Below are positions 21,219 to 53,952 of a DNA stretch of 64,000 nucleotides, piece after piece. Source of the DNA: a virus. Lineage: Duplodnaviria; Caudoviricetes. The first letter of the stretch is position 1; each line of letters begins with the position of its first letter. A model generated the notes under the pieces. The model was not told the origin of the DNA. It was given only the letters and a program-made list of their open reading frames with translations, and ran no database searches. The stretch is from the IMG/VR virus record IMGVR_UViG_3300027969_000040; one strand, given 5' to 3'. The position numbers and the translations under genes are program-made.

Positions 21219-22799
21219 TTAATAAACGTTTTGTGGATTATACGGATTAGTTCCCGTTTGACCTTTAACAATGAATCCAGTTTTAATTGATGCTAGTCTA
21301 GGATCGTTTGCAGGGGTTACCGCTTCAATCGTTTGGTAATTGGTTGGATTAACATTACTGGCCACAAAGTTTTTATCCGAATTAACTAACATAAATTCAG
21401 GCTGTGCATTAACTATAATAATATTTGGATTAATATTTGTTACCGAATTTACATTAGCACCATTTGCAACAAAATATCGAGAACTCGATACTGTCGGATT
21501 GCTAAACTCATAAGCTACCCGTTGATTAAGCGTAGATTGCGGAGTTATGTAATTGATAGGACTAATTACTGTAACTGAAACAGGTATGTCATATACGCCA
21601 GATTTAGATGCTGTGCCAGTAGTTAGTATGCTAGCATTTGGATTCAGCATGGCACCGGTTGGATTTGTATAGGTATTGACTGGGCTGCCAGATGCTAGTA
21701 CATTTGATGTAATATCTCCGTAGGGTATATTCAATCCACCGTTGAAATACAATCGCGAGTAATTGTAATAATTGTTTACTGCGGCTACAGTGGATGTAAG
21801 TGGTGGTACTATAGTAGAGTATGTTGCCACCCCAACGTTGGTAATAGTATTATTGTTAGAACTTGAATCAGTTAACAACGCACCACTGGAATTAAACTGC
21901 AATAATAATTGTGTATTGCTGATATTAGTCAATGGTATTGTTGGTGTAAAGTTTGCGGTATATACAATAGATTTAGTTATACGCACATTAGTTATTTGAC
22001 CGTTAAATTGACCGGTGGCCGTTGTAAACCCAATACCCAATGTGTTTGTTGGTGCAGATGCGCTATAAGCAAATGCTACGTTAGCAGCAGTACCTGCCAG
22101 GTTACCATTTACATAAATATTTGATCTTTTTGTACTGCTGGCAAAAGTTGTTGCTACATGATACCAGCCCCCGGTGGCAACAGCACTATTAGCATAAGTC
22201 CATGTGTTATTAGTTGATACACCTCTGGTATAAACTACTGTCACTGCGCCCACTGTGGGATTGTTTATTGACAACTCAAATCCAATGGATGTAGTTACTC
22301 CACTGGTGCCTAATAGATTTTGATATGTTGTTGCTCTGCTATAGTACCAACATTCTATTGTATAATCCTGCAACCCATTATGTAGGTAAGTCCATGTAGC
22401 TGCTGTATTTGCTGTCAGTGATTGAGTAGTACCGTTAAGTAGCACACTACCGCTGGCTAATCCTGCGCCTGCAATAACAGCCTGGCCACCAACATTATTG
22501 TTAGTTAATTCTAATGCTGGTAGCAGAGGCGTACTGATAGCGTTGGCCTGATTGCTATAGGCAAACGTAGTATTACCAAAACGGCTAACTGAATCTGCGG
22601 TTTGTATTACGTTAGCTAATTCAGATCTAGTATATCTTTGCCCTACTCCTACATTGCTACTGGTTTTTATAACAGTCTCAAGCGGCACTATGTCGCCTGC
22701 TGTATTAATGCCAGCTATAGACGATGGATCATACTTGGTAACAATAGTAACAATTTGATTTACTATTAGATCTACAGAAGTTATTTGACTAAACGACAT
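21219..22799 (-). CDS. Virion accessory protein with one LamG/ConA-like domain
   Basis: LamG signature YTIECW...WYHVA...IYVNG...FNGQITNVRI; TAAATA at 22804-22809. Confidence 0.75.
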   Translation of the reverse strand: MSFSQITSVDLIVNQIVTIVTKYDPSSIAGINTAGDIVPLETVIKTSSNVGVGQRYTRSELANVIQTADSVSRFGNTTFAYSNQANAISTPLLPALELTNNNVGGQAVIAGAGLASGSVLLNGTTQSLTANTAATWTYLHNGLQDYTIECWYYSRATTYQNLLGTSGVTTSIGFELSINNPTVGAVTVVYTRGVSTNNTWTYANSAVATGGWYHVATTFASSTKRSNIYVNGNLAGTAANVAFAYSASAPTNTLGIGFTTATGQFNGQITNVRITKSIVYTANFTPTIPLTNISNTQLLLQFNSSGALLTDSSSNNNTITNVGVATYSTIVPPLTSTVAAVNNYYNYSRLYFNGGLNIPYGDITSNVLASGSPVNTYTNPTGAMLNPNASILTTGTASKSGVYDIPVSVTVISPINYITPQSTLNQRVAYEFSNPTVSSSRYFVANGANVNSVTNINPNIIIVNAQPEFMLVNSDKNFVASNVNPTNYQTIEAVTPANDPRLASIKTGFIVKGQTGTNPYNPQNVY

Positions 22800-22814
22800 A
22801 ATGTATTTAACTGG

Positions 22815-25800
22815 TTATAAGTACTGATCGGGCTCAGTTGAATCATCCTGGGTACCAGTTTTAGTGATATATGTAGCCTTTAATGTCAGCTTCCTTGGAT
22901 CATTGGTAGTGGTTATTGGTTGTGCATATTGATAATTAAACGGTTTATCGTAAGTAGCCGGAAACGCTGGGTCACTGTTACGCAACATCCATTCTGCTTG
23001 ATAGTTAACAGTTATGTTGATGTCTGTTGAACCTACTATGTTATTTCCATCCACAGGTGCTCGGGCTATAGTGACTAAAGCGGTGTTGTTATTTGTTGGA
23101 TACTCGTAGATGACATTTGAGTTTGCGTTTGTTGGTCCGTACCCTAATGTATTGTATACTTGTTGATCAATGGTGTTATCAAGCACAATCACGTCTACGT
23201 TTGATCCAATTGCAGTGGTATTTGTAGATTGTAGATTGCCAAGGTAGACTAGATTAAGTGGACTGATGTATGGATATGTATAGGTGCTAGATGTAGTTGA
23301 ATATACCAGCGCAAATGCACCATTTGCTCCCCATCCACGTGAGGTATCCAGTGAACTAGTAACGCCTCCACCACCTCCACCACCGTAGAGTCCGCCATTG
23401 CTGCCAAATCCGGGCTGTGCTCCATTACCAGTTAGGCCAAGCGTAACTTCTGGACCACCACCGGTGCCGGGTTGACCTGCTGCGCCTCCTGCACCAGAAT
23501 ATCCACCTGGGCCCCAAATGTCTACTCCGCCACCACCTCCGCCAAATGTTGCACTAGAGCCACCACCTCCCCCACCACCGCCGATGCCGTAGCTGCCAGC
23601 TGCTAGCGACGAACCCGCTGCGCCGTTACCGCCAAAGCCCAGGTAACCTGCTGCACCACCACCTCCGCCGGCGTAAGGTCCACCGTTGCCGCCTGCACTG
23701 CCAATTGAGATATTAGCAGCTATAGTAAATGTTCCTGCTGTGGTAAATGTGTGTATGGTATATCCGCCGATTGATGTTACTGTACCGCCGGTGGCTATTT
23801 GTGTGCCTAGATAGCGCATGATGACTATGCCCGAACCACCCCAACCACCCGAGCCGCCGCCGCCGCCGGTATATGGCGAGCCATTGGCAGTTGCGTTAAC
23901 AGTACCAGTGCTGCCTGTGTATCCTGTAACTTGTGTTGCTGCCCATACACTGTTGTCGCCCTGGCCGCCGCCGCCTAGGCCACCCGAACTCAATAGATAC
24001 CCTGCATTGAGTGGGTAGCCAGCACTGCTGCCGCCGCCTGCATAGTATGTGGGTACGCCACTTATCGTGTATTGGCGACCTATTCCACCATTGGCAGTAC
24101 CCACAGAGACACTGTCACCCGCACCGCCTGCGCCACCACCACCTCCACCATAGGGTTGAACTGCGCCACCAACACCGCCTGTGTTGCCAAAGCCGGTATT
24201 GGTATAAGCCGTACCGTTGTAGTAGCTGGTAGTAGGCTGACTCGAAGATAAGGCTGTGTAACCAGGATACCAGCTGGCACCGCCGCTGCCACCCGAGTTA
24301 GCGTTGGGTGTAGAATCGTTAAATCCACCCCCACCACCACCATAGGCAATTACGCCGCGGACGGGGTCTATAAATGGTACAACATCGGTTTTGATTAATG
24401 GCGTGCCGGTGTTGATGGTGTATGTGTAACCGTATAGATAGTTGTTCGCACTGTTGTCTTTGTAGGTGCTGCTTTGTAGTACTAGTAGATTAGTTCTATT
24501 ATCTATATTGCCAGTGATAGCAGCAATGTTTCCCGACACAGTTTGAGTTGCGGCAAATGGTCTAGTGGGTGGAGTAAATGCGCCGGTATATACCATTCCT
24601 CTGGTAAAACGGAAGTTACTTAAATATCCAAGAAAATATTCACTACCGGTCCTAACACCGCCAATAATCATGGGTTCAGTATTGGTGGTGATAGTGACTG
24701 CGCTTGTGTATACTTGCGTCCCGTTTACATAGATAACAATATTGGTTCCAGTGTAAACCCAGGCACAGTGGCTCCAGGTGTTGGCAGTTAATGTTGTTGT
24801 GCTTTCGTAATTGGTTCCGTTATAGAAACTGATAACACCACTGGTCAATCGCAGGTAACCCTCATATTCGGTAGTGGCTGTGGCATTTACACGTTTGGCA
24901 AATACGGTCCTATAAGTACTATAGTCACCCGAAGGATTGACCCAACATTCTGCTGTCCATCCAGCAACGGGTTGCAGTAACAGGCTGGTTTGTGAGCCCG
25001 TAATGGCTGCTATATTTGCGCCACTGGAACTTTGAGTAATAGTTAATGGGGCAGTGGGTACTGTAAAATTGCCAGTGTAGACTGCTGCACCTTTGACTAT
25101 ACGTAGATTGGATATGTAACCAGTTGTTAAAAAAGTTGCTCCTGCGATACCGTTAATTTGTAGTGCCTGTGATGCGACTGATATGTTTGTAGAAATACCA
25201 GCGTTTGTGGATACTGATGTGCCATTGGAATACAATGTCAGTGTAGTACCATTTCTAACCGCAGCTACATGTATCCATGTGTTTATGGATAATCCCCCAC
25301 CGCCTTGATAAAATGTTGCTGTTGTTCCATCTGAAACACCGAATCTTAAATTAGTAGCAGTAGGACTGCCTTGTGTAAAAACCCAAGAGCTGGTTGCTGC
25401 GGTACCAGTCCATGGACCAACAAACGCACCAGCAACCAAAGCTGTAGTTATATAAACCCAACACTCAACAGTAAAACTACCAGTGCCATATGCAAAGGCG
25501 GCGTTTGCTGTTACCGTTAAATATTGGCTACCAGCAAAACTTATACTGTTTACAGTGCCCAATGGTGTAATTGCAGGTGCTGTTGCAATCACGTTTGGTA
25601 TTGATGCTGTACTGGTCACGGTAAATTGATTAACACTGGTATCAACAGCAGGTACTGTAGTCAGTGCTGTTGAGTTGGTGTACTGCAACAGGGTTGCACC
25701 ATTGAAGTAGACGCTGGCGTATCCATCAGTTGACGGTGTGGTCTGTGAAAATATGCTGGGACTTACGCTGCCGTAATATTTTACGATTGGTAAGTTATAT

Positions 25801-27332
25801 GGACCATTGTCGACTAATGTGCTGTTCTGCAAAGTCAACATTGTCGTGCCTGCAATGTTGGACAAGTTAGTGGTCTGTGGTGTAAAGTTGGCAGTATAAA
25901 CTGCTGTGCCATTTACGGTACGCAAATTGGAAATGTAAACGTTAGCCGAATATGTGTTCTGTCCAGTAGCAGCACCATCTCTTAAATTACCAATCCATAT
26001 GCTACTGCTGGTTTGAGCAATGTTGGCACCGGCACCACTAGCCGCAGCCACTGAGGTAACGTCTTGATATCCGTTTATGTATAGATAAACATTTCCATTT
26101 TGTCGAGTGGCCGCCACATGTGTCCACTGCCCGGTTGGAACACGCATACTACTGGTAGCTCTAGTGGTTGCGCCGGTTCCCCAGAAGAAATCAAGGCTGG
26201 TGCCGTTAAGTCCAAACGCCCAAGGCTGAGCTAGTGCGCCGGTTCTGGTATCAACAATGCCGGTGTAGGTGGCTCCATAAGCATTGAGATAGATCCATGC
26301 TTCTACTGTAAAGTCATTGAAAAAGAATGTTAGAGGGTAAACTGCCGATACCACCGATGGTACAGTTGTGCTAAAAGTGGCTGCGTTAACATTGTTTACT
26401 ACAGTGTTATTAACGCTAGCGTCTACTAGTTTATTAGCATCACTCTTAACCGATAGCAATAATGATGTACCAGTAACAATGCCAAGCGGCACCCGAGGAC
26501 TAAAGGCTGCGGTATATACTGCTGTACCTTTAACAATACGGAAATTGGTGATTAATCCATTAAAATATCTAGTAGAGCCGTCGGCAACACTACTACCTAT
26601 AGTCAATGTGTTGTTATCAGTATTACTCATGGTGAATGCCGTAGTAAATGGAGTACCGGCTACTGCGCCATTTACCCATGCAGTAAAGTTGGTTCCGCTG
26701 CGTACTAGAGCAAAATGATGCCAAGTATTGATGGCAAAAGTACCAGATGGGAAGTTAATGTTGGCACCTGCTGCGCCGCCATCACCAACAATAAATTGTC
26801 CACCAGATCCGCTCATGAATGCTGCATATGATGGGTTGAAAGAACTGGTAGTACCACCTTTCCAAAAGAAAACTTGTTCGCCTGTCACTGACCGAGGATA
26901 CACCCATAACTCAACTGTCCAGTTTCCTGCACCTGCTGCCAGATCAAGCGGACCACTAGTAGTTCCGGTTATTGACAAATACTGTGAGGTTCCGCTGAAA
27001 CTCAAACTGCCAGCTGCAGATGTTGTGACATTAGATGTTGTGGTTGCAACAGTAAGATAATCAAAAGTGCTATAACCATTAAACCAGTGACTGTATGTGG
27101 GCACGTAAGGCAGTATAGCACTATCGCCGCCGCGAGCCGAAACATTGCCGCCGCTGCCAACTATGACGTTGGCTGTGGATCCAGCTGGTATCCGTAGATT
27201 ACCAATGTAAACTAATCCCCCTGCTCCGCCACCTGCGCCACGCAGGTTATAGTTTGTGCCGCCGCCACCGCCGCCGGCTACTACCAGTGTTTCGACTGTG
27301 ACGTTTGATGAAAATGAGCTACTTATTGTCAT
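22815..27332 (-). CDS. Glycine-rich fibre/accessory protein with four LamG domains arranged as two nested pairs
   Basis: Four ..ISN.R....VYT..F.P motifs; Gly-rich LVVAGGGGGG...GGSGIVIMRY domain; TAAATA at 27339-27344. Confidence 0.8.
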   Translation of the reverse strand: MTISSSFSSNVTVETLVVAGGGGGGTNYNLRGAGGGAGGLVYIGNLRIPAGSTANVIVGSGGNVSARGGDSAILPYVPTYSHWFNGYSTFDYLTVATTTSNVTTSAAGSLSFSGTSQYLSITGTTSGPLDLAAGAGNWTVELWVYPRSVTGEQVFFWKGGTTSSFNPSYAAFMSGSGGQFIVGDGGAAGANINFPSGTFAINTWHHFALVRSGTNFTAWVNGAVAGTPFTTAFTMSNTDNNTLTIGSSVADGSTRYFNGLITNFRIVKGTAVYTAAFSPRVPLGIVTGTSLLLSVKSDANKLVDASVNNTVVNNVNAATFSTTVPSVVSAVYPLTFFFNDFTVEAWIYLNAYGATYTGIVDTRTGALAQPWAFGLNGTSLDFFWGTGATTRATSSMRVPTGQWTHVAATRQNGNVYLYINGYQDVTSVAAASGAGANIAQTSSSIWIGNLRDGAATGQNTYSANVYISNLRTVNGTAVYTANFTPQTTNLSNIAGTTMLTLQNSTLVDNGPYNLPIVKYYGSVSPSIFSQTTPSTDGYASVYFNGATLLQYTNSTALTTVPAVDTSVNQFTVTSTASIPNVIATAPAITPLGTVNSISFAGSQYLTVTANAAFAYGTGSFTVECWVYITTALVAGAFVGPWTGTAATSSWVFTQGSPTATNLRFGVSDGTTATFYQGGGGLSINTWIHVAAVRNGTTLTLYSNGTSVSTNAGISTNISVASQALQINGIAGATFLTTGYISNLRIVKGAAVYTGNFTVPTAPLTITQSSSGANIAAITGSQTSLLLQPVAGWTAECWVNPSGDYSTYRTVFAKRVNATATTEYEGYLRLTSGVISFYNGTNYESTTTLTANTWSHCAWVYTGTNIVIYVNGTQVYTSAVTITTNTEPMIIGGVRTGSEYFLGYLSNFRFTRGMVYTGAFTPPTRPFAATQTVSGNIAAITGNIDNRTNLLVLQSSTYKDNSANNYLYGYTYTINTGTPLIKTDVVPFIDPVRGVIAYGGGGGGFNDSTPNANSGGSGGASWYPGYTALSSSQPTTSYYNGTAYTNTGFGNTGGVGGAVQPYGGGGGGAGGAGDSVSVGTANGGIGRQYTISGVPTYYAGGGSSAGYPLNAGYLLSSGGLGGGGQGDNSVWAATQVTGYTGSTGTVNATANGSPYTGGGGGSGGWGGSGIVIMRYLGTQIATGGTVTSIGGYTIHTFTTAGTFTIAANISIGSAGGNGGPYAGGGGGAAGYLGFGGNGAAGSSLAAGSYGIGGGGGGGGSSATFGGGGGGVDIWGPGGYSGAGGAAGQPGTGGGPEVTLGLTGNGAQPGFGSNGGLYGGGGGGGVTSSLDTSRGWGANGAFALVYSTTSSTYTYPYISPLNLVYLGNLQSTNTTAIGSNVDVIVLDNTIDQQVYNTLGYGPTNANSNVIYEYPTNNNTALVTIARAPVDGNNIVGSTDINITVNYQAEWMLRNSDPAFPATYDKPFNYQYAQPITTTNDPRKLTLKATYITKTGTQDDSTEPDQYL

Positions 27333-27378
27333 ACTAGTTATTTAACTGAAAACAAATGTCACTATTTCACCCATAACA

Positions 27379-30300
27379 TTAAAATGTCATTGAAATACTG
27401 CCAGCAGTACACACATATATTTTATATCCATTTTCTGTAACAGTTGTATAAGATCCTGTAATAGAAGACGGGGCTGGATATATATCTGGCCACCAAAAAA
27501 TTGCAACTCCGCTGCCCCCGGTACCAAGGCCGTTACCACCATTACCAGTGTTGGCAGTTGCCGTGCCGCCACCTCCGCCCGAAGAGCCACCAACAGCGTA
27601 AGTTTTTGTATATGTTGCACTCGGAGTAGTAACTAGTAAGCCCAGTCCTGCAGCACCGGCTGCGCCGCCAGCAATTGCATTTCCTCCGGGGCCGCCTGCA
27701 CCACCGCCACCGCCTGCTCCTATTGTGTAACTTCCATTGCCGCCACTGTAACCATATCCGCCTGAAGTAGATCCGGGTTGAGTCGCACTTGCACCCGTTG
27801 GGCTCCCAGAACCATTGGAGCCGCCGCCGCCGCCACCTGAACCCCCGGGTGACCCATTACTGCCGTAAATGCTACTGCTGCCACCACCGGCGCCGCCACC
27901 TAATGCAATTCTATTAAAACTACTTAAAGTGCAAGTAACCGAACTGTTTGTACCATTAACATTTGGGGCGCCGCCTGTGCCAACTTGTACTGTTACAAAA
28001 GTGTTTAAATTTGCAAGTACAATGAAAGTGCCAGTTACTAAACCGCCTGCTCCGCCACCACCTGCACTGTTATCAGCTGGAGATCCGCCACCGCCGCCAC
28101 CACCGACAATCATGTAGTTTATAGTTATTGAAGTAGCCGGTGGTAACATATTAATATAACTAGTTGAAGTAAATTTATGCAACCAATAATTGGTTCCGCT
28201 GTAAGAAACGGATTGTACTAAATCGCCACCGGTGCTGCGTTGCAGGCCAGCATACCAGAAGTAAGCTACTCCAGCATTGCCTGCAACACCATATCCAACT
28301 CGGCCACCGCCACCACCATAGTTAACACTGCTATTGGCTGCATATCCACCATCTGAATATCTGGCAATGACATTGCCCAGGATGTTAACTGCTATGGGCC
28401 CGCTACTAGATGCTACTGTGGGGACGACGGTACCGTTATAAGAGACATTGACACTGGTTACAGTGAGATTATTAACGCTGGAATCGGTCAAATATGATCC
28501 GCTACTGTTAACCAATAACAATAACGATGTGTTGGTAACCGCACTCAACAGTATAGGAGTAAATGTGCTCTTGTATACTGCTGTGCCATTGACGATCCTG
28601 ATATTGGTCATGTAACCTTGATACCAAGCTACTCCAGCGGTAGTTTCGTTTGGAGTATACCCAATGCCAAATGATCCTGCTAGCCTTACTGCGCCACTCA
28701 TAGCACCAGAACCAGCTGGAGAGCCATTTATATAGAATGTGTATGTTGACCCACTTCTTACCAGTGCTATATGACACCATTGATTTAGTGTGATTGTGCC
28801 GGCACTAGTGAAAGTGCCTCCACTTTTGATATTACCATTTCCAGCAATAGACCAGTCCATTTGCAATGTGTTATTTGTGTTTATAAACATCATCCAACCT
28901 CGGCCAGGGCTTGGGCCGGCCTGACAGCTCATAAAACACACACTGGATGCAACTTGTTTGTATACCCAAGCTTCGAGTGTAAAATCAGCAGTCAAATTAA
29001 ATGCTGCATTACCGGGCGAGGTCAGTGTGGCATTGGTACCGTTAAAGTAAAAACTACCACCAGCAGCGGTAGCCGATGCGCCCGTACTAGGAACCACTGT
29101 GCTGCTAAAGGTTGCGCCACTGATAGTTGGGGTAAAATTATTACTGCTACTGTCAACTGCTCTGTTGGTATTGTTGGCAACAGTCAGCAATAGTGATGTA
29201 CCAGAAACCAGCGCCAATGGTACTGTTGGAGCAAAGCTACTGGTGTATACCGCAGTGCCTTTGACTATTCTAACATTGGTTATGTATCCACGAAAGAACC
29301 AAGTTGGGTTTGATGCGTCATTATTGGCACCAATGAACAGTGGATCAGAACTTGTTACAAGTGTTACCGCTGCGGTGGTAGCAACTTGTGCGCCGTTTAA
29401 ATAAAGATAAAAACTAGCACCGTTTCTAACAAAAGCCGCATGATACCAAGTGTTTAAACTGGTAGCAGGACCACCACTCATGCCACCAGAAGTATTCCAG
29501 CTTGCACCAATGCCGCCTACACCGTTATAACTAGCATACATTGCAAATGATCGGCCGGGGCCCGAGTGCCATAGGTATACTAAACTGCCGCCTTGGTTAG
29601 TACCAGGATAGGCAGTTTGATAAAACCAACATTCAACAGTAAAATTGCCTCCACCGAACGCCCAAGCAGCATTAGTTGGATAACTTACATAACTAGAACC
29701 ATTAAACACCAAGCTACCCGATGCTGTTGTACCTGCTGTGTTTGATGCTGATGGTACTACACTACTGCTGTAAGTTACACTGCCAACGTTGGTTAGCGTA
29801 ACTGGACTTGCGCTTGAATCCGTTATTTTATTGGCATCGCTGTTGACTAATAACAGTAACGATGTGTTGGTGATGTTAGATAACGGTACAGTTGGAGAAA
29901 ACGCAGAGGTATATACTGCGGTACCTTTTACTATACGAATGTTAGTGAGGTAACCACGATAATAACGACCAGCTTCATTATGTCTTCCTATTGTTTGACT
30001 AGTACCTCCGGCATCAATTGCACGAGTCTCACTGGCATTGTAGTCTATAACACCATTAACAAAAATTTTAAATGTAGAACTTTGTCTTGTCCAAGCTATA
30101 TGTGTCCAGGCGTTTAATGGAATGATAGTAGCACCAGATGGATTTCCTGTGGCTCCTATTATTTGCATGTAAGCATACATATTACCTGCAGATACAAATA
30201 AGCCAACATTCCACGACGTGTTTCCAGATCCTGATCTTGCATCTATTAACCCTGCATATATACCATCGGGTGCAAACGAGGTAGGATATACCCACATCTC

Positions 30301-31794
30301 TATAGTTAAATCTCCAGTACCAAACGAAAGCGCAGTTTGTGCCGAAAATGTAAGAGTTTGGCTAGTACCATTAAAAAACAAACTACCCAAGGCATAACTA
30401 GTTAAATTACTTCCACCACTGCCGCCACCAAACCCACCTTGATTTCCGGCTGCACCTCCGGTTCCGTAACCGCCCCACGTACTACTGGGTTGCAATCCGG
30501 CGCCGCCAGCACCACTAACCACGCTAGGGCTGTATCCGCCGCCGCCGCCGCTGCCGCCAGGCTGGCCAGAATCTCCGGTTAATGCACTGCCGCCTGCGCC
30601 GCCGCCAATGGCAACTACACCATTGTCACCAAATACTGATGTGCCAATTGCACTGGTGTTGCCACCATTGCTGCCCAAGCTGCCGCCCGACCCAATGGTG
30701 ACTAAACTGTTTCCACTAGTGGACGATGTTATCCCAATTGATCCCAACACCACACCACCACCACCTCCTGTGCCCGGACTGACTGCAGATACTGAGCCAT
30801 CTGCGCCTGCGCCACCACCGCCGGCTACTAATAGATAGTACAAATAAGATTCAGCAGCGAATGTCAATGTATAAAATTTATCAATACTACTGCCACTAGT
30901 TGATGTTGCATTAATTGTAATAAGGTAACCATCAGACAGGGAAGGACTTACTTGTTGGGTATAAGACAATACACCAGTGGATGAATTTATTACTAAACCG
31001 GTTGGACCATTAGCGACACTGTAAGTTATAGTACCACCATTGGAGTCTTGTGCAGTAAACGTATCAATTGAAGAATACGTGCTATTAATAATACTACCGG
31101 TGGTACCGCCGGTTAACCAATTCATATTGCCGCCGCCGGTTCCTCCAGCTGCATATATTGCAGGTGCAGTTGCTGCTGCATCAATGAAATACGTTGCGTC
31201 TCCGTTATCACCGGCACTGGTTCCCGGACCGCCACGCCCGCCCACAACAATGGTATAACTGGTACCAGGCGTCACTGCATAAGCATTATAGTAATCAATT
31301 AAGCCTCCAGCGCCGCCAGTGCCGCCGGCAGCTTTTTGTTGGCCGCCCCCACCACCACCCACACCTACCATACTTATACTGGTTACACCCTCAGGGCAAG
31401 TCCAAGTATAAGTGCCGGGGGTGGTATAAGTTACTGTTGCATATGCACTAACGTTTGAAACTATGTTACCATATGTGTAATTTAATCCCCCACCAAGTAC
31501 TGATGTAGTACTAGTAACTGCAAAACTGTTTGCGTTGGCAGTTATGCTAGTGACATCATCATCTATAATGTAAATTGACTGACCAATATTAGCACCAGCA
31601 TACCCAATTGTGGTTATAACATTCGCCAATACCGGAGTTGTAGATATTGATCTTATGTTGCTTTGGGTGAATACGCTAGTTTCACTGAGATTGAGCCCCA
31701 CTGTGGTCTTGACCAATGAGGAATCACTTTGTACAACAGTTATCGTCGTGAGACGATTGACAACTAGATCAAGATTGGATAGTATAGCAGACAC
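27379..31794 (-). CDS. Glycine-rich fibre/accessory protein with three LamG domains and a short Ig-like segment
   Basis: Three GY.TN.RIV.GTAVY motifs; three Gly-rich domains; AQDSNGGTITYS...GLVINSSTGVLS looks like an Ig/cadherin-like segment. Confidence 0.8.
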   Translation of the reverse strand: MSAILSNLDLVVNRLTTITVVQSDSSLVKTTVGLNLSETSVFTQSNIRSISTTPVLANVITTIGYAGANIGQSIYIIDDDVTSITANANSFAVTSTTSVLGGGLNYTYGNIVSNVSAYATVTYTTPGTYTWTCPEGVTSISMVGVGGGGGGQQKAAGGTGGAGGLIDYYNAYAVTPGTSYTIVVGGRGGPGTSAGDNGDATYFIDAAATAPAIYAAGGTGGGNMNWLTGGTTGSIINSTYSSIDTFTAQDSNGGTITYSVANGPTGLVINSSTGVLSYTQQVSPSLSDGYLITINATSTSGSSIDKFYTLTFAAESYLYYLLVAGGGGAGADGSVSAVSPGTGGGGGVVLGSIGITSSTSGNSLVTIGSGGSLGSNGGNTSAIGTSVFGDNGVVAIGGGAGGSALTGDSGQPGGSGGGGGYSPSVVSGAGGAGLQPSSTWGGYGTGGAAGNQGGFGGGSGGSNLTSYALGSLFFNGTSQTLTFSAQTALSFGTGDLTIEMWVYPTSFAPDGIYAGLIDARSGSGNTSWNVGLFVSAGNMYAYMQIIGATGNPSGATIIPLNAWTHIAWTRQSSTFKIFVNGVIDYNASETRAIDAGGTSQTIGRHNEAGRYYRGYLTNIRIVKGTAVYTSAFSPTVPLSNITNTSLLLLVNSDANKITDSSASPVTLTNVGSVTYSSSVVPSASNTAGTTASGSLVFNGSSYVSYPTNAAWAFGGGNFTVECWFYQTAYPGTNQGGSLVYLWHSGPGRSFAMYASYNGVGGIGASWNTSGGMSGGPATSLNTWYHAAFVRNGASFYLYLNGAQVATTAAVTLVTSSDPLFIGANNDASNPTWFFRGYITNVRIVKGTAVYTSSFAPTVPLALVSGTSLLLTVANNTNRAVDSSSNNFTPTISGATFSSTVVPSTGASATAAGGSFYFNGTNATLTSPGNAAFNLTADFTLEAWVYKQVASSVCFMSCQAGPSPGRGWMMFINTNNTLQMDWSIAGNGNIKSGGTFTSAGTITLNQWCHIALVRSGSTYTFYINGSPAGSGAMSGAVRLAGSFGIGYTPNETTAGVAWYQGYMTNIRIVNGTAVYKSTFTPILLSAVTNTSLLLLVNSSGSYLTDSSVNNLTVTSVNVSYNGTVVPTVASSSGPIAVNILGNVIARYSDGGYAANSSVNYGGGGGRVGYGVAGNAGVAYFWYAGLQRSTGGDLVQSVSYSGTNYWLHKFTSTSYINMLPPATSITINYMIVGGGGGGGSPADNSAGGGGAGGLVTGTFIVLANLNTFVTVQVGTGGAPNVNGTNSSVTCTLSSFNRIALGGGAGGGSSSIYGSNGSPGGSGGGGGGSNGSGSPTGASATQPGSTSGGYGYSGGNGSYTIGAGGGGGAGGPGGNAIAGGAAGAAGLGLLVTTPSATYTKTYAVGGSSGGGGGTATANTGNGGNGLGTGGSGVAIFWWPDIYPAPSSITGSYTTVTENGYKIYVCTAGSISMTF

Positions 31795-31803
31795 AATCTA
31801 CCC

Positions 31804-33693
31804 TCATACCGACACGCTGGCAATAATATTGCTAACGCCTCCGCCTGAAATGGTGACTGCTGCATTGACATCTGCGCTAGCCGATGTGGTTACTGTGGTA
31901 GTGTAGTTACTACCACCAAACAACATGCTGCCGCCATCAATGACCAGTTTAACTGTGGTGCTAATCCTATTTCCGCTGGCATCAAGTGCTTTAACTGCCA
32001 AGTTACCAGTAATTGGTGTACCAGTATAGGTATAGGTAGTAGCATCGGGAGTAACTACAATAGTCACAGGTACTGTTAAACTAATCAAATGTACACGACC
32101 CCATCTAAATGGTCCTGGTTCTACTCCCCAGATGCGTCCAAGGTTATCTCTACCCACTGCACTAAATTGAAATGGTAAAGTTGCTGTACGTGTCCAACCA
32201 GCGGCTTCGGTGAACGTATAGATATAGAAATTGTTTAAGCAAAACACACCCAATATAGTTAAACTATCGTTTAACCAAACAATATTTTTTGGTGTTGTAG
32301 GTACCGGAATACTACTATGGTATGTTAAGATCCTAGGGTCTCCGGCATTTACGCTGTAGCACATAAATGTACATGATTTTGGGGCAGCATCGGCAAGAGC
32401 ACCAGTGCCGTTCAATTGCATAAACAATAAATATCGATTTGAGCCTACTGTAAATGTTTCATTGGCCCAGACTGACTGCATGCCATATATAGTAGTGATT
32501 GTTGCCGGAGCAGTGCCATCTGGTGCCCAATATGTGCTTAAACTATTGGCGCCATAGCTGAGAGTACAATTGTTAGCATTACGACTAAATGCATCAGTTA
32601 CCGTGTTCCATTGATAGTAAAACGGTGCATAGTTACCAGCGGTATCCACATATGGTACATAGAATCCTCGACTGTTTGCTGCCAATGGATCAGTAAACCA
32701 ACGACTAGAAAACTTAGATTTATAGCTGCCTTGTGTAGTTGTCCTATTGCCACCTACACTAGATCCGCTAGCAGCAGGACTTGCACTAAAAGCATTTAAC
32801 TGTGTGGCTGTATTGGCACCATCGTTATATTTCCAAAATTGTTGATTAATGTCATCTGTGGTACCATTCTGCATGGTAATCATTAAACCATCTACTGCAC
32901 TTATTCCAAGAAATTGAGTTGTATAATTTGTAGCGCCGCCGGTTGAAGGCGACGATTGTGTTGCTTGTGCAGTGAATGCTTGGCCCGAATGGAATCCAGC
33001 CGCTGCACTAGGATAAATACCAGTGGCATATAACCCATGGTAGACCATATTACCAGTGCTAGGATTTCTATACATAGGGTATGCATGTGGAAAATAACTA
33101 GTGGTTACAGCACTCATATAGTTATTTTGATTCACTATGGTTCCGCTGGCTATACCTGCACTGGTTCCATTTACCATCACAATATATCTTGTGCTTTCGG
33201 CAGTGGCAGTGTTAGTTGCTGGACTATTTTGCCAATGTGTCCAAATAGCAACACTGCTGGTTCCATCTGTAAAATAAGATGCTGGATACGGTCTACGTGC
33301 AGGATCCATGGAAAAGAAAGGAGCATGATCTAAATTAGTACTATAGGTGTCTTTTGCAATAGTAAAATGTCGAACGTGTGTAACTTCACCGTTAAGTGCC
33401 AGTATACCAGTAAACATATTGAAACTAATGTTATATTGTGCTGTAACAGTACCACTTAAAATAGGGTGACCAAATGTATTGTATGTGATCATAGTGGCAT
33501 TGTCAGCTGCATTAATTATCGTATTAGGCAAAACACCACTGGGGGCAAAGTTATACTCAACATCAAATTGTGGTGTTAAGCTGGTTTTATTAACACCGTC
33601 GGTCTGAAAATACATGTAGGTAGAGCCTGGGATTGGATCTTCAAGTACAGCCGCTGCTTGAAATGCCCGTTTAAATGTTCTTATAATTGCCAC
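31804..33693 (-). CDS. Putative receptor-binding/structural protein; paralogue of 33975-35810
   Basis: Collinear similarity along the whole length with the 611-aa ORF; aromatic- and Thr-rich beta structure; C-terminal Ig-like domain. Confidence 0.6.
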   Translation of the reverse strand: MAIIRTFKRAFQAAAVLEDPIPGSTYMYFQTDGVNKTSLTPQFDVEYNFAPSGVLPNTIINAADNATMITYNTFGHPILSGTVTAQYNISFNMFTGILALNGEVTHVRHFTIAKDTYSTNLDHAPFFSMDPARRPYPASYFTDGTSSVAIWTHWQNSPATNTATAESTRYIVMVNGTSAGIASGTIVNQNNYMSAVTTSYFPHAYPMYRNPSTGNMVYHGLYATGIYPSAAAGFHSGQAFTAQATQSSPSTGGATNYTTQFLGISAVDGLMITMQNGTTDDINQQFWKYNDGANTATQLNAFSASPAASGSSVGGNRTTTQGSYKSKFSSRWFTDPLAANSRGFYVPYVDTAGNYAPFYYQWNTVTDAFSRNANNCTLSYGANSLSTYWAPDGTAPATITTIYGMQSVWANETFTVGSNRYLLFMQLNGTGALADAAPKSCTFMCYSVNAGDPRILTYHSSIPVPTTPKNIVWLNDSLTILGVFCLNNFYIYTFTEAAGWTRTATLPFQFSAVGRDNLGRIWGVEPGPFRWGRVHLISLTVPVTIVVTPDATTYTYTGTPITGNLAVKALDASGNRISTTVKLVIDGGSMLFGGSNYTTTVTTSASADVNAAVTISGGGVSNIIASVSV

Positions 33694-41073: not shown

Positions 41074-44000
41074 TTAAGAAACCATCTTGCTTGGTGGAGT
41101 GAATGCACCGGTGTATCTGGCCACGCTCTTGGTTACACGTAAATCATCAATGTAACCGTTGAAATAGTTGGATATTGTTGCACCGCCGCTGTAGCCGGCT
41201 CCGATATTCACTATGCTTGCACTTATATATGCGGTAGTATCAGCCCATGGGGTTCCAGCTACTACACCATTTATATACAAAGTAGTGGTATTAACATAAC
41301 GAACTAGAGCAATATGATACCATGTATTAATAGCAATTGCGCTGGCTGCGCTGGTAATCCTGTCTGCTGTGCTGACATAATATCTAACAGTTCCATCACT
41401 GCTTAAATAGATAAGATGATACGCCCCGTTAGTTGATGCCGGTCTGGTGTCAAATAACTGTGCAGAAGTACCCGGTAGTGCTGCGGCACGCATCCAAAAT
41501 TCGATAGTAAAATCGGATACAGCACCAAAGTTAAACTTGACATCCGAGTAGGGTACTGTTAGGTAGTTACTAGATCCGTTAAAATAAACAGATCCTGTGC
41601 CATACCGGTAAACTGAGTTGACTACTTGTGCTGCGCCTGCTACACTTCTGATCGCGCTCCTCGACGAGGGATCGTTAATAGCAGAAGTTACAGTATTGCC
41701 AATTAATAATGCAGTATTTGCAACCGTAGTCGGAGGGGCCGCAGGTGGTGTAAATGCACTGGTGTACAGTGCAGTACCGTTGACTAATCGAATACCGCCT
41801 ATATAGCCATTGAAAAATAGTGTATTGCTACCAGTTTGACGACCAATACTGCCGCCTGTGGTGGTACCCGCAACACCAAAACTGTCAGCTATTGTACCTT
41901 GGGCATAGACTGCTCCGTTAACATATATAGTTATTTGGTTTGTGCCGGTCCCGGTACGAACTACAGCCACATGATAAAATTGATTTGGTAATAGTGCAAC
42001 AGTTCCGGTTACATATACTGTGGTACTAACACCGGTAGCATAACCAAATTGTAAAAGTCCAGTTGCACTAAATCCCAGCTGCCATTGCCCAGTTTGGAAT
42101 GCTGCTGCAATACCAATAAAGTTGTCAATTAATTTAGGCTGTGCAGTTAGTAGACCAAAAGAATAAAACCAACATTCTAATGTAAAATTGCTTATGCCCA
42201 ATACCAACGAGCTAGCCGGTAAATTTAAATAATCTGCGGTACCATTTAGTACCACAGTTCCGCCGTATGCAGAATTTGACCAGCTGCCAGCTGGTGGATA
42301 TGGTGAAAAGTTTTCAACAGTGGGTGTACCTGCCCTGGTTAATGTTCTAGCATAAACTGATCGATCCACTGCATAGCTATCTTTTAAAGTTAATAAACTA
42401 GTACCAGCTGCAAACGGACTTGCCGTCGACACTGTAGCCAAATTATTGACCATTGCATATGCATTAACACTAGAATCTACAACAGTAGCATTACCAGCAG
42501 CGAGCAAATTGGTAATACCAGTACCAAACGGATTAACAAGTGCCGTGGTAGTTGGTGGCCCTACATTGGTTAAAGTAAATGCATAAGGTCCAGAATCAGT
42601 GAGAGTGCTAGATCTTGCTGCAAGTAAATTAGTATAACCAAAAGGAACAGATGATCCGCCACTGTTAAAAGCAGGATTGCCAGTGGCAGTTATTGAAATG
42701 GCATTGGTACTATTATCAATTGCAGTAGCTGATTGTGCAGTTAAAAATATAGTATTAGCGATAGCAGTTAATGATGTTGTTGGCGGTAGGAAATTAACTG
42801 TAGTATATAGTGCAACACCACTTAGAATTCTAAGATTACTTATGTAGCCGATAAACGGAAACGGATTAGAATCTGCGTATCTACTACCCAATCGAACAGT
42901 GTCGGACAAATTAGAAAATGTAGAAGTCATTGAGCTGATAAACGTACCATTGACAAAAGCAAATAATCTATTAGATTGCATGGTTAATACAACATGTGTC
43001 CAAGTACTAGTCGGTAATGTCCACGAAATAAAATTTACACCTGCGCTATTTGCATTAGCAATACCGGCACCGTTACGTGCAAGTATAAATCCTGATGTTG
43101 TTTGAGTTGTACTAGTTACAATACCTGCTAGACTATCAGCTGCAGGGTCAACCCATACCCAACACTCTACTGTAAAGTCGCCGGTGCCTATAACAAAACT
43201 ATTACTAGTAGCAGTCAAGTAACTGCTACCATTGAAATATACGCTATAAGGAACAACGGGTTGTGTTATTGTTGTTAGTCCTACAGTAGGAACAGTAAAA
43301 GCAATAGATTGATATATTGCTGCACCTTTTGTTATTCGAAGATTTGTCAAATAACCTGCCCAAGACGATACAGTTGTTGCGCTCCATGAGCCAATTGCCG
43401 TCAATCCAGCTGAATAGTTGTCAAGATTGGCAGCACTTGCCATTGCTTGGCCATTGATATATATTGTTATTATTCCACTAGCTCTTACCGCAGCTACATG
43501 TGCCCATGTATTAATTGTTATAGTATTAGTAGGAGTAGTAATTAATAATATATTATTAACCGAGTAAAATACAACTGCGCCAGTTGCATTGTTAACACCA
43601 ATCCGATATGTACCTGCACCCGACCCAGTTCCAACAAAATAAGTTGGCCCAGTGGTTGTTGTATAATAGATCCATGCTTCAATGGTGAAATCCCCGGTAC
43701 CCATTTGTAATGCTACATTGTCTGGTACTGTTGAATATGCTGGTAAAGAATTAAGTGCTGGCGCTATGTCGGCAGATACAACAAGGTTGGTATTAGTCAC
43801 AGTTAGACTATAGCCCCCGGTATCGGTGATATATCCTGCTGTACCGTTTAATAGCAATGACGTATAACTCAAATTTGGTATTGCCGCAGAAGGATTGCCA
43901 TTCTGATTAGCAATTTGTGTACTAGTCAATTGGCCTGTGGAAACAACAAAATTGCTGGTATATACAGCTAGACCTTTAACAATACGGAAATTAGAAATAT

Positions 44001-47000
44001 AACCTGCAAAGGGAAGAAGATTGCCGTCGGAATTAGCACCAATCGTTAATAAATTATTACCAGTATTACTCATAACGGCAGCCAGAGATACAGGAGTTTG
44101 TGATACCCCATTTACATATGCAGTTATTGTATTTCCGTTACGCACTAATGCAAAATGATACCAAGTAGATATCACAAAGGTGCCAATTATGGTTTGTGCT
44201 GCCGCTGCGCCGGATCCACCGTTGCCCAAGGTCCATGTTCCAGTTCCGGCATTGATATTAAAAATATATGAAGGATTCACGGTGCCAGTTGCGCCACCTT
44301 TTCCAAATATTACACGATTAGATGCAACACTGGTAAGATAAAACCAAGTCTCTATGGTCCAATTTAGAGCACCGGTTGCTAAATCTAAAGCATCGCCTGT
44401 AGTTCCTGTAATAGATATATACTGGGTTGTACCATTGAAACTTAAACTACTTGCTAGCAGTGCAAAATTAGTACTATAATTAGTTGTAACATTGGAAATT
44501 GCTGTAGTTGATGGAGTAAAGTTTGCTGTGTACAGGGCTTGTCCATTTGTTACACGTAGGTTAGAAATATGTCCAGTGAATTTGCCACCTGTGCCTGACC
44601 ACCCACCAATGACTGTAGTATTAGCTGTGGTTCCCCATGTTCCAGTCTGGGCAATAGTACCAACATTATTTCCTGCCAGGTATACTGTTACCGTATTTGA
44701 TCGATTTACAAAAGCTATGTGTGTCCAAGTATTTAAACTTGGTGTTGTTGCTGTTACTGTTTGATAGCTAAGGCCATTTCTTGCTGCTACAATATATCCA
44801 GCATTAGTAATACCCCAAGTTTGATAACTAGTAACTCCCACATTACCACTAATAATATTAACTGAGGTAGCGTATGTAATACCAGTTGCAACAGCGGTCA
44901 TGTAGATCCATGCTTCGACTGTGTAGTCACTAGTTAATGTTGTTACTACTGCCAATGGCGCTGCCAAATAAGAAGTAGTACCATTGAATAATACACTGTA
45001 TGTGCCGGTGCCTGCCACAGTGGTTAGTGGCGCAATTGGTTGTACTGTAGACTGGACACCTTTATCAATTTGTAAATTAGATATGTATCCCGAAAAATAT
45101 GCAGTACCAGCCGGATTTCTACCAATATTTAATGTGTTAGTCGGCGCCGCAGTATTGTACACAAACGATGGTAAGCTACTTGAGCCAGCTGCTAGACCGT
45201 TAATATAAAAACCAACTGTTTTTGTATTAGCTGTAAAAGTAACCGCTATGTAGTTCCACTGGTTTAATACTACTACCGGATTTGAATTAAATGCCGGGTT
45301 GGTAACGGCGCTACCAGTGGCATTAAAGAACACCACGGACATGCTGCCAGTTACACCACCATAGGTGGTATTGTTAAGTTCAATACTGATCCCAGTTTGA
45401 CCGGCCACATTGGTTGTGGCTAGCGGAACCATTAGTGATGAGCTTCTTGGATATATCCAAAATCTCACAGTCCAATCTTCAATACCATTGTGTAAGAATG
45501 CCCACTCGATGGCAGTGCTCGCTGTGTAGTAGTCAGTGGATCCGTTGAATTGATAACTCCAACCAGTTACAAACGGATTCACTGCGCCTTGTGTAGCAGT
45601 ACCTGCTCTAACAATTAAATAGTTATTAAAGCTGTTGTCCGAGAAGAAATTGTTATTATTTGATACGTTGTACTGACTGGTCAATACACTGGTACCGGCA
45701 TAGGCAGTAAATGGATTGTTCACGCTAACGCCGGTTACACCTTGGTTGGTAATAGCAATAGCGCCGCCGCTGGTGTCAACAATAGTTCTAGACTGAGCTA
45801 TTAGCAAGCTGGTGGTACTGGTGAATGGATTAACTGCAATACTGGTTACTGTACCGGTATTGGTGATGGACACTGGCAGTGTACTATTGTCTACAATGGT
45901 TGCCGCTTGCGCAGTTAATACTATTACATAAGCTGGAATTTGTGTGGAGTCGGTAGCAATTGAAATGCCACCAACATTAGTTATTGCTGCTGAATTTGCA
46001 CTATTATCTATAATAGTATTATTTTGCAAAGTTAACAAGCTGGCCTGTGTTCCAGTCACGGCAGCAATATTACTGCTGGCATTTTGTATAGTAGATAATT
46101 GAATGGTAGGTGGTGTAAAGTTGCCAGTGTAGACTGCGACATCTTTTACAATTCTGAAATTACTAATATAGCCATTCCAGAATTGGTCGCCCGATGCACC
46201 ATCTGATTTACCGATATACCCTGGAGCAGTAGTATGTGAAATAGTTCCAGCATAGGTATAGACTGTACCGCCCACACCATTTTGATATATCCTAAATGAA
46301 CTGCCACTTCTAACCAATGCTACATGGTACCAAGTGTTTGTTGTTAGTGCTGGTAAACCAAAATCAAGATTAGAATCAATTGCCCATGATGTACCAGATG
46401 AACTAGCAATTTGCATGACTAATTTATTTGTGGTATTAAGTACACGAAATATTACACCAATGTATTGTAGTAATTCTCTCTTACCAAATATACCGTTTTG
46501 ACCGTTTAATACAGTAGTATATACCCATGCTTCAATAGTAAAATCACCAGTACTAAGATTAATTGCAGTTGAATGTGGTACAGTCAAATACTGTGTACTA
46601 CCATTAAAACTTGCATAGTAATATTTTGGTGGTAAGGTTGGTGTTAGTAAAGATGCTGTTGTGCCGCCAACGTTGGTGATTGTGTTTACATATGCACTTG
46701 CATCTGTTATAGCTGCGCCTTGTAATGTTAACATGCTGGTTTGCAATCCGGTGATAGCTGCTATGTTACTACTAGAACTTTGTGTAGTTGCCAGTGGCAA
46801 GGTTGGTACTGTAAAGTTGCCAGTGTATACTGCTACTCCTTTAACTACACGTAAATTAGTAATATAACCATTAAAAATGTAGCCAGGTGATAATGGAACA
46901 TTACCATCTGTACCAATTATTGGTCTATTAGTGCCGTTTAACCAATTTGTAGTACTGGTGCCGCTAGAGGATTGTACACCATTGATATATGTAGTCTGAG

Positions 47001-52284: not shown

Positions 52285-53952
52285 TTACACAACAAACGCC
52301 GCGCTGGTAGTAAATGCATGATAAACATAACCGCCACTAATACTTATATTTCCTCCAGTGGCCGCGGCCGCAGAACCAGGATATCTGACAACAACTAGTC
52401 CACTACCGCCTGCACCTGGAACATTATCATAGTAGCTACCGCCACCGCCCCCTCCCGAATTTGCAATACCATTTGTTGCTGCCACAGCATTGAGAACACT
52501 ACCACCGCGGCCGCCGCCGCCAAGACCAGCGGCTGTAATTGGGGATAATGTAGAGTATGTGACAGAACCAACGTTGGTTATAGTATATCCAAAGGCACCA
52601 GTATCAGTAAATGCAGCAGCCGATGATGAGGCTGTTAATAATACAGAAGTAGTGCCACTTGTAACTGCGGCAACATTACTGCCACCAAAAGGATTAGCAG
52701 CTTGCACCGCAGTCAATGGGCCCGCCGGCGGGGTAAAATCGCCAGTGTATACTGCTATACCATTTACCATTCTAAAATTGGTAATGTAACCATAGAACGG
52801 ATATGTGTAACTTGATGTAGCACCACGTCCAATCTGTAATATAGTCCGAGATGTCCAAGCCGGTACTGTTCCAGTGGCAATCTGTACACCATTAACAAAT
52901 AATCGAGCAGTAGTACCCGATCTTGAAAATGCCACGTGATACCAAGTCAATGTTGAGAAAGTGTATCCAGCAGAGACAAAATATAGTGTATTGTTAACTG
53001 CTTTATAAACAACAGTTAACCCACCGGGTTGAAAGTAAAATTGCCACGTGGCACTACTAGCACCATCGCCTTCGGCTGCAATTGCAGATGCCCGGATGTA
53101 CTGATTTGCGTTTGCTGGGTCTGGCATTGTAGTTATATACATCCAAGCTTCAACTGTATGGTCACTGCTGACCCAGCCTCCTGCATTGGTTGCACTTAGA
53201 TAGTTGCTGCCATTGAATAATAGTGCTCCAGACTGGCCCCCACCTAATCCATTAGTAACTGTGGCTCCAGCAGCACCACCACCGCCACCACTGGCATATG
53301 TATTTCCATCAAACCAAGTATATCCAACTCCGCCCTGACCTGATGCAGTTGTAATTCCAAGCCCGCCAACTCCGCCGGCGCCGCCGCCGCCACTGGAATA
53401 TGTAGCTGCACCACCGGCGCCGCCTGCAAAGCCTAGTCCGCCGCTGGCAGATGATGGTTGATTAGCGGCACCTGCGCCAATGCCCGACATGCCTCCACCA
53501 GACCCTCCAGCCAGTAATGCTTGCGGAACTCCAGTGCCCGTGGTGTAACTGCCGCCGCCTTGTCCTCCACCTAATGCAGTAAATCCATTAAATGTTGAAC
53601 TTAATCCAGTGGATAGCGCAGCAGTACTATTACCACTGTTTAAAACAATTGCCGGCCCGCCTGCACCTATAGTAACTGTATATGATCCGGTTGATGTAAT
53701 GAATCCAGTTTTGACCACAACACCGCCGGCACCGCCACCACCGCCTTGCCAAGCTAGAGCAGCATCACCTGTACCCCCTCCGCCACCGCCACCAACTATA
53801 ATATAGTCAATTGACAATTGTCCCGGACCTGGCCAGACACCTGCTTGTTTATTTTGCATCTGCTGCGACAATGTCCAAAATCCGCTACCATTGATATTGG
53901 TAGGATTATAATTCGATCCTGAAATTATTCCGCCAGGATATCTCTTGCTCAT
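52285..53952 (-). CDS. Gly-rich accessory protein with one inserted LamG domain
   Basis: MSKRYPGG N-terminus; IDYIIVGGGGGGG ... GGSGLVVVRYPG...ATGG...YVYHAFT; LamG domain in the middle. Confidence 0.78.
   Translation of the reverse strand: MSKRYPGGIISGSNYNPTNINGSGFWTLSQQMQNKQAGVWPGPGQLSIDYIIVGGGGGGGTGDAALAWQGGGGGAGGVVVKTGFITSTGSYTVTIGAGGPAIVLNSGNSTAALSTGLSSTFNGFTALGGGQGGGSYTTGTGVPQALLAGGSGGGMSGIGAGAANQPSSASGGLGFAGGAGGAATYSSGGGGAGGVGGLGITTASGQGGVGYTWFDGNTYASGGGGGAAGATVTNGLGGGQSGALLFNGSNYLSATNAGGWVSSDHTVEAWMYITTMPDPANANQYIRASAIAAEGDGASSATWQFYFQPGGLTVVYKAVNNTLYFVSAGYTFSTLTWYHVAFSRSGTTARLFVNGVQIATGTVPAWTSRTILQIGRGATSSYTYPFYGYITNFRMVNGIAVYTGDFTPPAGPLTAVQAANPFGGSNVAAVTSGTTSVLLTASSSAAAFTDTGAFGYTITNVGSVTYSTLSPITAAGLGGGGRGGSVLNAVAATNGIANSGGGGGGSYYDNVPGAGGSGLVVVRYPGSAAAATGGNISISGGYVYHAFTTSAAFVV

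Follow-up and report, generated by a model that had tools for sequence, protein, structure and literature searches.

Putative nesting of LamG domains within LamG domains in a 1505-amino acid protein encoded by a tailed-phage contig

Several described systems in which one domain interrupts another provide the background to the locus considered here. In the RTX adhesins AhLap and MpIBP, split domains have been shown to project ligand-binding domains outward from the fibre's axis (PMC12077191; Graham et al. 2024 cited there). Si3 of the cyanobacterial RNA polymerase is built from recursive insertions of the sandwich-barrel hybrid motif (SBHM) (PMC10895346), an arrangement that has been termed a six-level nest (PMC13114784). 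A survey of domain insertions in ECOD found that inserts usually fall below their hosts in size (median 115 versus 199 residues) and that 65.8% of insertion events join different homology groups (PMC13114784). Here we describe a protein of 1505 amino acids (aa), P0001, encoded on a stretch of 64,000 nucleotides (nt) of the virus record IMGVR_UViG_3300027969_000040 (Duplodnaviria; Caudoviricetes), hereafter the window, in which two LamG domains each appear to be interrupted by a further, complete LamG domain. As in other insertion architectures of the A1-B-A2 type, the host is discontinuous and the guest continuous (PMC13114784). Against the trend of the survey, however, the guest (~230 aa with linkers) is at least the size of the host (~215 aa) and belongs to the same family.

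P0001 consists of a glycine-rich N-terminal part, four LamG domains arranged as two apparently nested pairs, a glycine-rich C-terminal part and a C-terminal domain. A Pfam search matches Laminin_G_3 (PF13385) over four stretches (4.2e-63), all four of which score above the gathering cut-off of 27.6 bits (66.6, 60.5, 59.2 and 65.0 bits), and Gly_rich_2 is also matched. Host A (aa 80-95 and 332-530) encloses guest B (aa 100-331) in pair 1, and host C (aa 536-556 and 788-990) encloses guest D (aa 557-787) in pair 2; the constituent pieces are listed in Table 1. From the comparisons set out below we consider it probable, at about 0.77, that each pair is a true domain-in-domain insertion with the guest LamG lying within the loop between strands 2 and 3 of the host LamG, and both nested domains would then presumably fold as drawn.

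The first indication of discontinuity comes from profile coverage. By the Pfam profile, and by a custom hidden Markov model (HMM) of 179 positions built from 350 full-length domains of unrelated matches, guests B and D are each complete, self-contained LamG domains (LamG-1 and LamG-3), whereas in LamG-2 and LamG-4 the opening 13-30 model positions are absent. In the neighbouring protein P0002 the three LamG domains are all full length and start at Pfam profile position 1-2. Among the ~24 matches of the custom HMM to proteins encoded in the window, only LamG-2 (position 24) and LamG-4 (position 31) start at or beyond position 20, every other domain starting at position 3-15. The segment absent from the LamG-2 and LamG-4 cores corresponds to the consensus SVYFDGTGDYLTVPSNAAFAFG, which comprises two strands and a loop, and each of the two orphan pieces found upstream of the guests holds two strands, xxYFNG and DYLxV. 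Since the orphan piece carries the first two strands, the break in the chain falls in the strand 2-3 loop. The first-pass annotation had placed the break after the first strand; the host is indeed split early in the domain, but one strand later than had been proposed. The four peptides on which that annotation rested are all located in the 1505-aa open reading frame (ORF), and the truncation seen by Pfam and HMM agrees with its claim that the LamG continuation resumes only after a complete LamG.

Each guest is furnished with the elements of an ordinary domain. Guest B has its own N-piece SLSFSGTSQYLSI, a core and a trailing TSLLL...ATFSTTVPS hairpin, after which core A runs from YPLTFFFNDFTVEAWIY to NLRTVNG and FTPQTTNL. 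Guest D has an N-piece SISFAGSQYLTV, a core and a tail ending ...SGANIAAITGSQTSLLLQ, and core C then runs from PVAGWTAECWVNP (aa 788-800, 24933-24971) to NFRFTRG. Closing piece C is followed by the second glycine-rich region and, by translation and custom HMM, by no further LamG. The entry linker of guest D (aa 557-592, 25557-25664) contains VDTSVNQFTVTSTAS, which resembles the DxSxNN...T.T hairpin that usually follows the TSLLL strand of a LamG. Around guest D, TSLLL is found only behind the guest (aa 782-787), and the accessory strands may therefore be arranged around it in permuted order. In the case of guest B, the nearest paralogue of the N-piece lies at aa 2604-2786 of a 3732-aa protein of the window (43915-44463), a domain that also takes fourth place out of 840 for the core, so that both genes make use of the same LamG subtype.

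When the pieces of each host are joined in silico the flanks score as one LamG. Core A alone gives 114.8 bits (HMM 26-177). Deletion of aa 96-331 (26340-27045), as suggested by the first-pass annotation, leaves aa 76-95 joined to aa 332-500 and gives a full-length match of 117.4 bits (HMM 4-176), and joining aa 76-99 to aa 332-500 gives 122.2 bits (HMM 4-176). Core C alone gives 96.6 bits (HMM 32-176). The deletion that had been suggested for pair 2, 24980-25570, did not yield a full-length match (96.8 bits, HMM 23-176) because a 36-aa linker (aa 552-587) remains, but with the tighter deletion of aa 557-785 (aa 534-556 joined to aa 786-940) the flanks do align as one domain, at 111.8 bits over HMM 3-176. 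Controls consisting of 20 shuffled and 20 random N-pieces per pair produced no gain (shuffled 112.9 ± 1.0 and 97.2 ± 0.5 bits), and their alignments never began before HMM position 9. For both host domains the model was covered in full only when the orphan piece was counted.

Further evidence for the interruption of host A came from orthologues. A database search identified seven full-length orthologues of P0001 with identities of 47-85%. In P0001, P0005 and P0006 a single complete LamG separates N-piece A from core A, in P0003 and P0004 two do so, and none does in P0007, P0008 and P0009, where the two pieces are contiguous (...DYLTVTNTAYPFSLGGDFTVEAWIY) and the sequence ...YSHWFNGYSTYDYLTVTNTAYPFSLGGDFTVEAWIY... 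reads as one continuous LamG. With three architectures among the orthologues, the same host A is thus uninterrupted, one-guest or two-guest at its N-proximal site. The contiguous host A of P0007 covers Pfam profile positions 3-128, starting at DYLTV, as against 16-127 in P0001, and the piece that is orphaned in P0001 is there aligned as Pfam positions 3-15 and custom HMM positions 4-22. P0007-P0009 carry a guest at a different place, the AAI site, with core A (...FTPQTTNLSTTQSSGANIAAI) before it and closing piece A (TTFLSLQNSTLIDNS...) after it, the guest of P0007 being aa 273-457. In P0001 the AAI site, directly before closing piece A, is empty. The orthologues with an uninterrupted host A therefore separate the two sites, as the first-pass annotation had anticipated in calling them distinct, and together with the rejoining of the flanks they support its domain-in-domain reading.

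P0007-P0009 are positional orthologues flanked by the same genes as P0001; the neighbours of P0007 are a giant glycine-rich/LamG protein, a LamG protein and a 1120-aa glycosyltransferase. The identity between P0001 and P0007 is 95% for the N-piece, 76% for the core and 81% for the closing piece of host A, but only 38% for the guests. At the nucleotide level (blastn) the genes are colinear over nt 1-298 of the P0001 gene at 84% and again from nt 1536 at 87%; nt 1017-1472 match nt 318-755 of the P0007 gene at 72%, and nt 299-1016 (26317-27034) form a block that is absent from the P0007 gene. The two genes differ by reciprocal insertions and deletions. Direct repeats flanking the guest B insertion were sought, and only short ones at chance level were found, none of them at the boundaries.

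The contiguous form also bears on whether piece A (YSHWFNGYS...) is a LamG strand at all. It could instead be the conserved end of the N-terminal glycine-rich domain, LamG-2 being a shortened variant, and it does directly follow the glycine-rich region, is spanned by a marginal Gly_rich_2 alignment (aa 10-190, 24.6 bits) and has a similar counterpart, GYTWFDGNTY, inside the glycine-rich domain of a 555-aa protein. Because both Pfam and the custom HMM align the same piece of P0007 as part of a LamG, we regard this explanation as very improbable. The gain on rejoining is, moreover, specific to the real piece, and the explanation does not extend to pair 2, situated at a distance from every glycine-rich region.

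Pair 2 has the split form in all 8 orthologues, and host and guest differ markedly in how well they are conserved. Among the 8, the host pieces have mean pairwise identities of 94% (N-piece C), 86% (core C) and 91% (closing piece C), against values in guest D of 38% for the core (minimum 22%), 63% for its own N-piece and 92% for the return segment (aa 751-787). P0001, P0003 and P0007 share almost the same guest D (98% between P0001 and P0007), and P0004, P0005, P0006, P0008 and P0009 carry, in place of that guest D core, LamG subtypes that diverge widely (22-38% identity) between flanks of >90% identity. This pattern looks like cassette exchange, that is, a conserved host around what may be a replaceable cassette.

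These values have a bearing on the suggestion that the orphan pieces are relics, stray first strands left behind by unequal recombination or deletion in tandem LamG domains, with the cores folding alone or borrowing the guest hairpin TSLLL...ATFS. The LamG arrays of these phages are clearly shuffled mosaics, a piece resembling a beta-hairpin lies directly before core A, across which the HMM can stretch in P0006 (HMM 4-176), and AlphaFold2 did not place the orphan pieces. Relics should decay, yet the orphans are 94-95% identical and near-invariant across orthologues that are 47-85% identical overall, and N-pieces and cores occur in equal numbers in each orthologue as well as in a second family described below. 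The stretched alignment in P0006 gains no score (108.1 versus 106.0 bits), and the contiguous form in P0007 shows that piece and core make up one domain. We therefore think a relic origin unlikely, chiefly because the orphans are among the best conserved segments and the N-pieces balance the cores.

The order N-piece, N-piece, core, core would equally permit a strand swap, in which the orphan completes the adjacent guest core and the N-piece of the guest completes the downstream host core, so that the domains are intertwined and neither is inserted into the other. Against this, it is the guest N-piece that varies with the guest core (63% and 38%) and the orphan that stays with the host core (94% and 86%). 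Among 840 N-pieces, that of guest B ranks first to sixth for the nearest relatives of the guest B core. P0007 joins the orphan directly to core A, and the two-guest forms (P0003, P0004 and P0040) would need a three-way relay. The failure of subtype matching to discriminate for the hosts, discussed below, can be read in favour of a swap; given the covariation within the guest and the orphan-core junction of P0007, it nevertheless seems a most doubtful explanation.

A number of findings weigh against insertion, the reading that we prefer. The gains on rejoining are modest (~3-15 bits). For pair 2 no contiguous orthologue was found among the sequences recovered, only relatives of ~50% identity. 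In favour of insertion, on the other hand, the nearest non-orthologous relatives of core C, P0022 (608-752), P0059 (1042-1193) and P0044 (1271-1416) at ~150 bits each and P0086 at 142 bits, are ordinary contiguous LamG domains, for example ...GSMVFDGSTNYLTIPNATQFNLALGLPWTAECWIWPTGD, with Pfam coverage from profile position 1 in P0022 and P0086. Subtype matching of the orphan N-pieces to the N-pieces at the head of the nearest relatives of cores A and C did not discriminate, because the N-piece is too short and generic. Around the guests, the hairpin pieces TSLLL and DxSxNN may belong either to the host or to the guest. Finally, in AlphaFold2 models built on orthologue alignments alone the orphan pieces appear as coil, at a mean predicted local distance difference test (pLDDT) score of 31.6 for aa 70-530 (5 sequences) and 45.4 for aa 525-965 (8 sequences), although models of such low confidence say nothing for or against nesting.

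Docking of orphan C and core C as separate chains with ESMFold2 (aa 528-562 against aa 780-960) was carried out with alignments in which the N-pieces and cores of 90 full-length LamG domains were paired, together with the orthologues. It gave a score of 0.54 (runs 0.71, 0.54 and 0.46) compared with 0.01 for the best of three controls; agreement between runs extends to at least 50% of contacts, and the pLDDT of the partner is at least 49. In calibration, 58 of 80 solved complexes attained the pass mark, as did 2 of 110 mismatched pairs, with scores at or below 0.60 coming from only 7 of those 80 complexes and from both of the passing mismatches; these counts are rough because self-made alignments were used. 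The docking weakly suggests that orphan C may complete core C. The pass may, however, reflect memory of LamG structures, as the two pieces belong to a known fold, and what the model points to is that orphan C resembles the missing strands, which does not demonstrate binding. The nearest solved LamG_3 structure, 4qvs_A, is matched by a core profile at 1.3e-15, whereas a phmmer search of PDB sequences with the contiguous P0007 domain gave no match, so that a profile was needed to reach 4qvs_A.

The arrangement is not confined to P0001 and its orthologues. An HMM of the N-piece alone was run against 121 proteins from the searches and seven window ORFs (128 in total). The best four orphan N-pieces came from P0040, P0022, P0059 and P0044, unrelated proteins that are ~30% identical to P0001, and the next best were from the P0001 family. 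In P0040, P0022 and P0059 the orphan is followed by two complete LamG domains (in P0044 by one) and then by a C-terminal core whose HMM match begins at position 20-29. Rejoining in this second family gains 5-18 bits and shuffled pieces gain nothing. A search of the full library with core C gave 15,563 matches at E <= 0.001, from which 110 representative giant LamG proteins were sampled; within these, clear orphans occur in one further family only, P0122/124/125/126. The combination of orphan, guest and truncated core is recurrent but rare.

The members of that further family are proteins of 5,843-6,550 aa with 25-27 LamG stretches each, in which the orphan N-piece SVYFNNTNDFLTFPEP directly precedes the N-piece of another domain. 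Such an order could represent a nest that holds two or more guests. Of the other N-truncated matches in the 110-protein sample, most carry a divergent N-piece of their own (KFGxSSL...) and are not nests, for which reason truncation in an HMM alignment is not by itself evidence of nesting. P0044 has what appears to be a third LamG-in-LamG site at aa 359-753, where aa 359-419 (HMM 4-69) are followed by a complete LamG (433-602) and by the rest of the host (616-753, HMM 44-175); P0040 and P0059 share the truncated core of this nest. In the 555-aa protein mentioned above (52285-53952, minus strand) the N-piece-like GYTWFDGNTY (aa 213-219, 53296-53316) lies upstream of a complete LamG (aa 239-415), and could be due to chance or could be another orphan strand.

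Table 1. Features of the P0001 gene and its two LamG pairs (nucleotide positions are those of the window)
Feature	Residues (aa)	Position	Strand	Evidence or remark
Gene for the 1505-aa protein P0001		22815..27332	minus	ORF and translation
Orphan N-piece of host A, YSHWFNGYSTFDYLTV, strands 1-2 of LamG-2	80-95	27048..27095	minus	rejoin test; near-invariant in 8 orthologues
Guest B, complete LamG-1	100-331	26340..27035	minus	Pfam profile 3-142; custom HMM 3-172
Core of host A, LamG-2 without first two strands	332-491	25860..26339	minus	Pfam profile 16-127; custom HMM 24-176
FFFNDFTVEAWIY, inside core A	336-348	26289-26327	minus	resumption YPLTF begins at 26339
Closing piece of host A, NIAGTTMLTLQNSTLVDN...KYYGSVSPSIF	492-530	25743..25859	minus	81% identity with P0007 aa 507-544
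Orphan N-piece of host C, DGYASVYFNGATLLQYTNSTA, strands 1-2 of LamG-4	536-556	25665..25727	minus	rejoin gain 15 bits; orphan N-piece HMM match
SVYFNGATLLQY, within orphan N-piece C	540-551	25680-25715	minus	
Entry linker and guest D, complete LamG-3	557-787	24972..25664	minus	Pfam profile 2-144; custom HMM 4-176
Core of host C, LamG-4 without first two strands	788-927	24552..24971	minus	Pfam profile 14-140; custom HMM 31-176
Closing piece of host C, ...SGNIAAITGN...TNLLVLQSSTYKDNS...	928-990	24363..24551	minus	91% mean identity among orthologues

The genes beside P0001 encode giant glycine-rich/LamG proteins of 1471 aa (P0002), 3732 aa (15 LamG matches) and 526 aa. The neighbourhood also encodes a multi-domain glycosyltransferase and a tail sheath protein of 1135 aa that is at most ~44% identical to the sheaths of the jumbo myoviruses Atu_ph07 and PA5oct, and the parent contig is recorded as 260 kb. 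Through its LamG parts only, P0001 matches PHROG families annotated as "virion structural protein" and "baseplate wedge subunit". On the strength of the giant LamG and sheath neighbours and of these matches, P0001 appears to be a structural protein, of fibre or baseplate type, of an uncultured jumbo phage. The GC content of the LamG/glycine-rich genes (22000-32000) is 0.45-0.48, compared with 0.33-0.40 on the low-coordinate side and ~0.40-0.42 on the other; this probably reflects Gly-, Ala- and Thr-rich coding and not a foreign origin.

In LamG domains generally the two ends are adjacent in space, which would make the insertion of a guest into a host loop possible. In the route that we envisage, the host chain would form the hairpin of strands 1 and 2, exit through a Thr/Ser-rich linker, build a complete guest LamG able to fold alone and then return to lay down host strand 3 onward. 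The hosts would serve as conserved scaffolds and the guest, at least in pair 2, would be a cassette that recombination exchanges for another. Binding of a ligand or receptor by this virion fibre or baseplate protein presumably falls to the guests. Specificity is likely to reside in them, judging by the mean identity of 38% for the guest D core and by the same figure for guest B against the P0007 guest, which occupies a different site. More tentatively, the split hosts might be sockets with at least two alternative loops, that between strands 2 and 3 and the AAI site, into which variable LamG plugs are swapped singly or in pairs by recombination between phages; we lean against this fuller picture but consider it a possibility of some substance. 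If true, it would amount to a modular device for switching host range, a lectin fold serving to present further copies of the same fold.

Although domain insertion is common, host and guest of the same family and of equal size are unusual. The close orthologues provide natural before-and-after pairs for how a jelly roll tolerates a large insertion, and the probable seat of binding specificity in giant LamG proteins that are otherwise unannotated is indicated by how far the guest core diverges while the hosts stay conserved. For annotation, truncated LamG matches beside complete ones should prompt a search upstream for orphan first strands.

A literature search that excluded subscription journals found no paper on LamG-in-LamG nesting in phage proteins. 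The nests of P0001 are a variation on the known architecture of domain insertion. The RTX adhesins offer a close parallel: they too are long fibrous surface proteins in which a beta-sandwich host is interrupted after an early strand and then finished, and in which a complete binding domain with adjacent termini buds sideways, as is proposed for P0001 (PMC12077191). They differ in that their hosts are Ig-like, their guests have folds of a different kind (CBM, RTX roll, vWFA) and crystallography has resolved the arrangement (PMC12077191), whereas in P0001 host and guest are both LamG_3, the protein is a probable phage virion protein and the nests are known here from sequence. Si3 shares with P0001 the insertion of one fold into its own copies and the building of domains from distant parts of the chain (PMC10895346). 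Its units, however, are small SBHM domains in the trigger loop of an enzyme and are fixed across a phylum (PMC10895346), in contrast to the ~200-aa lectin-like units of P0001, which have one level of nesting and a guest that varies in position and number between close orthologues. The tandem Laminin_G_3 arrays, such as that of P0002, belong to the same family and the same type of phage structural protein and contain the same N-piece, core and closing-piece elements, but in them each core is directly preceded by its own N-piece, whereas in P0001 two cores have their N-piece ~240 residues upstream. This locus adds the N-proximal site, the use by orthologues of either site on the same host, the existence of one-guest and two-guest forms and the difference in degree of conservation that separates host from guest.

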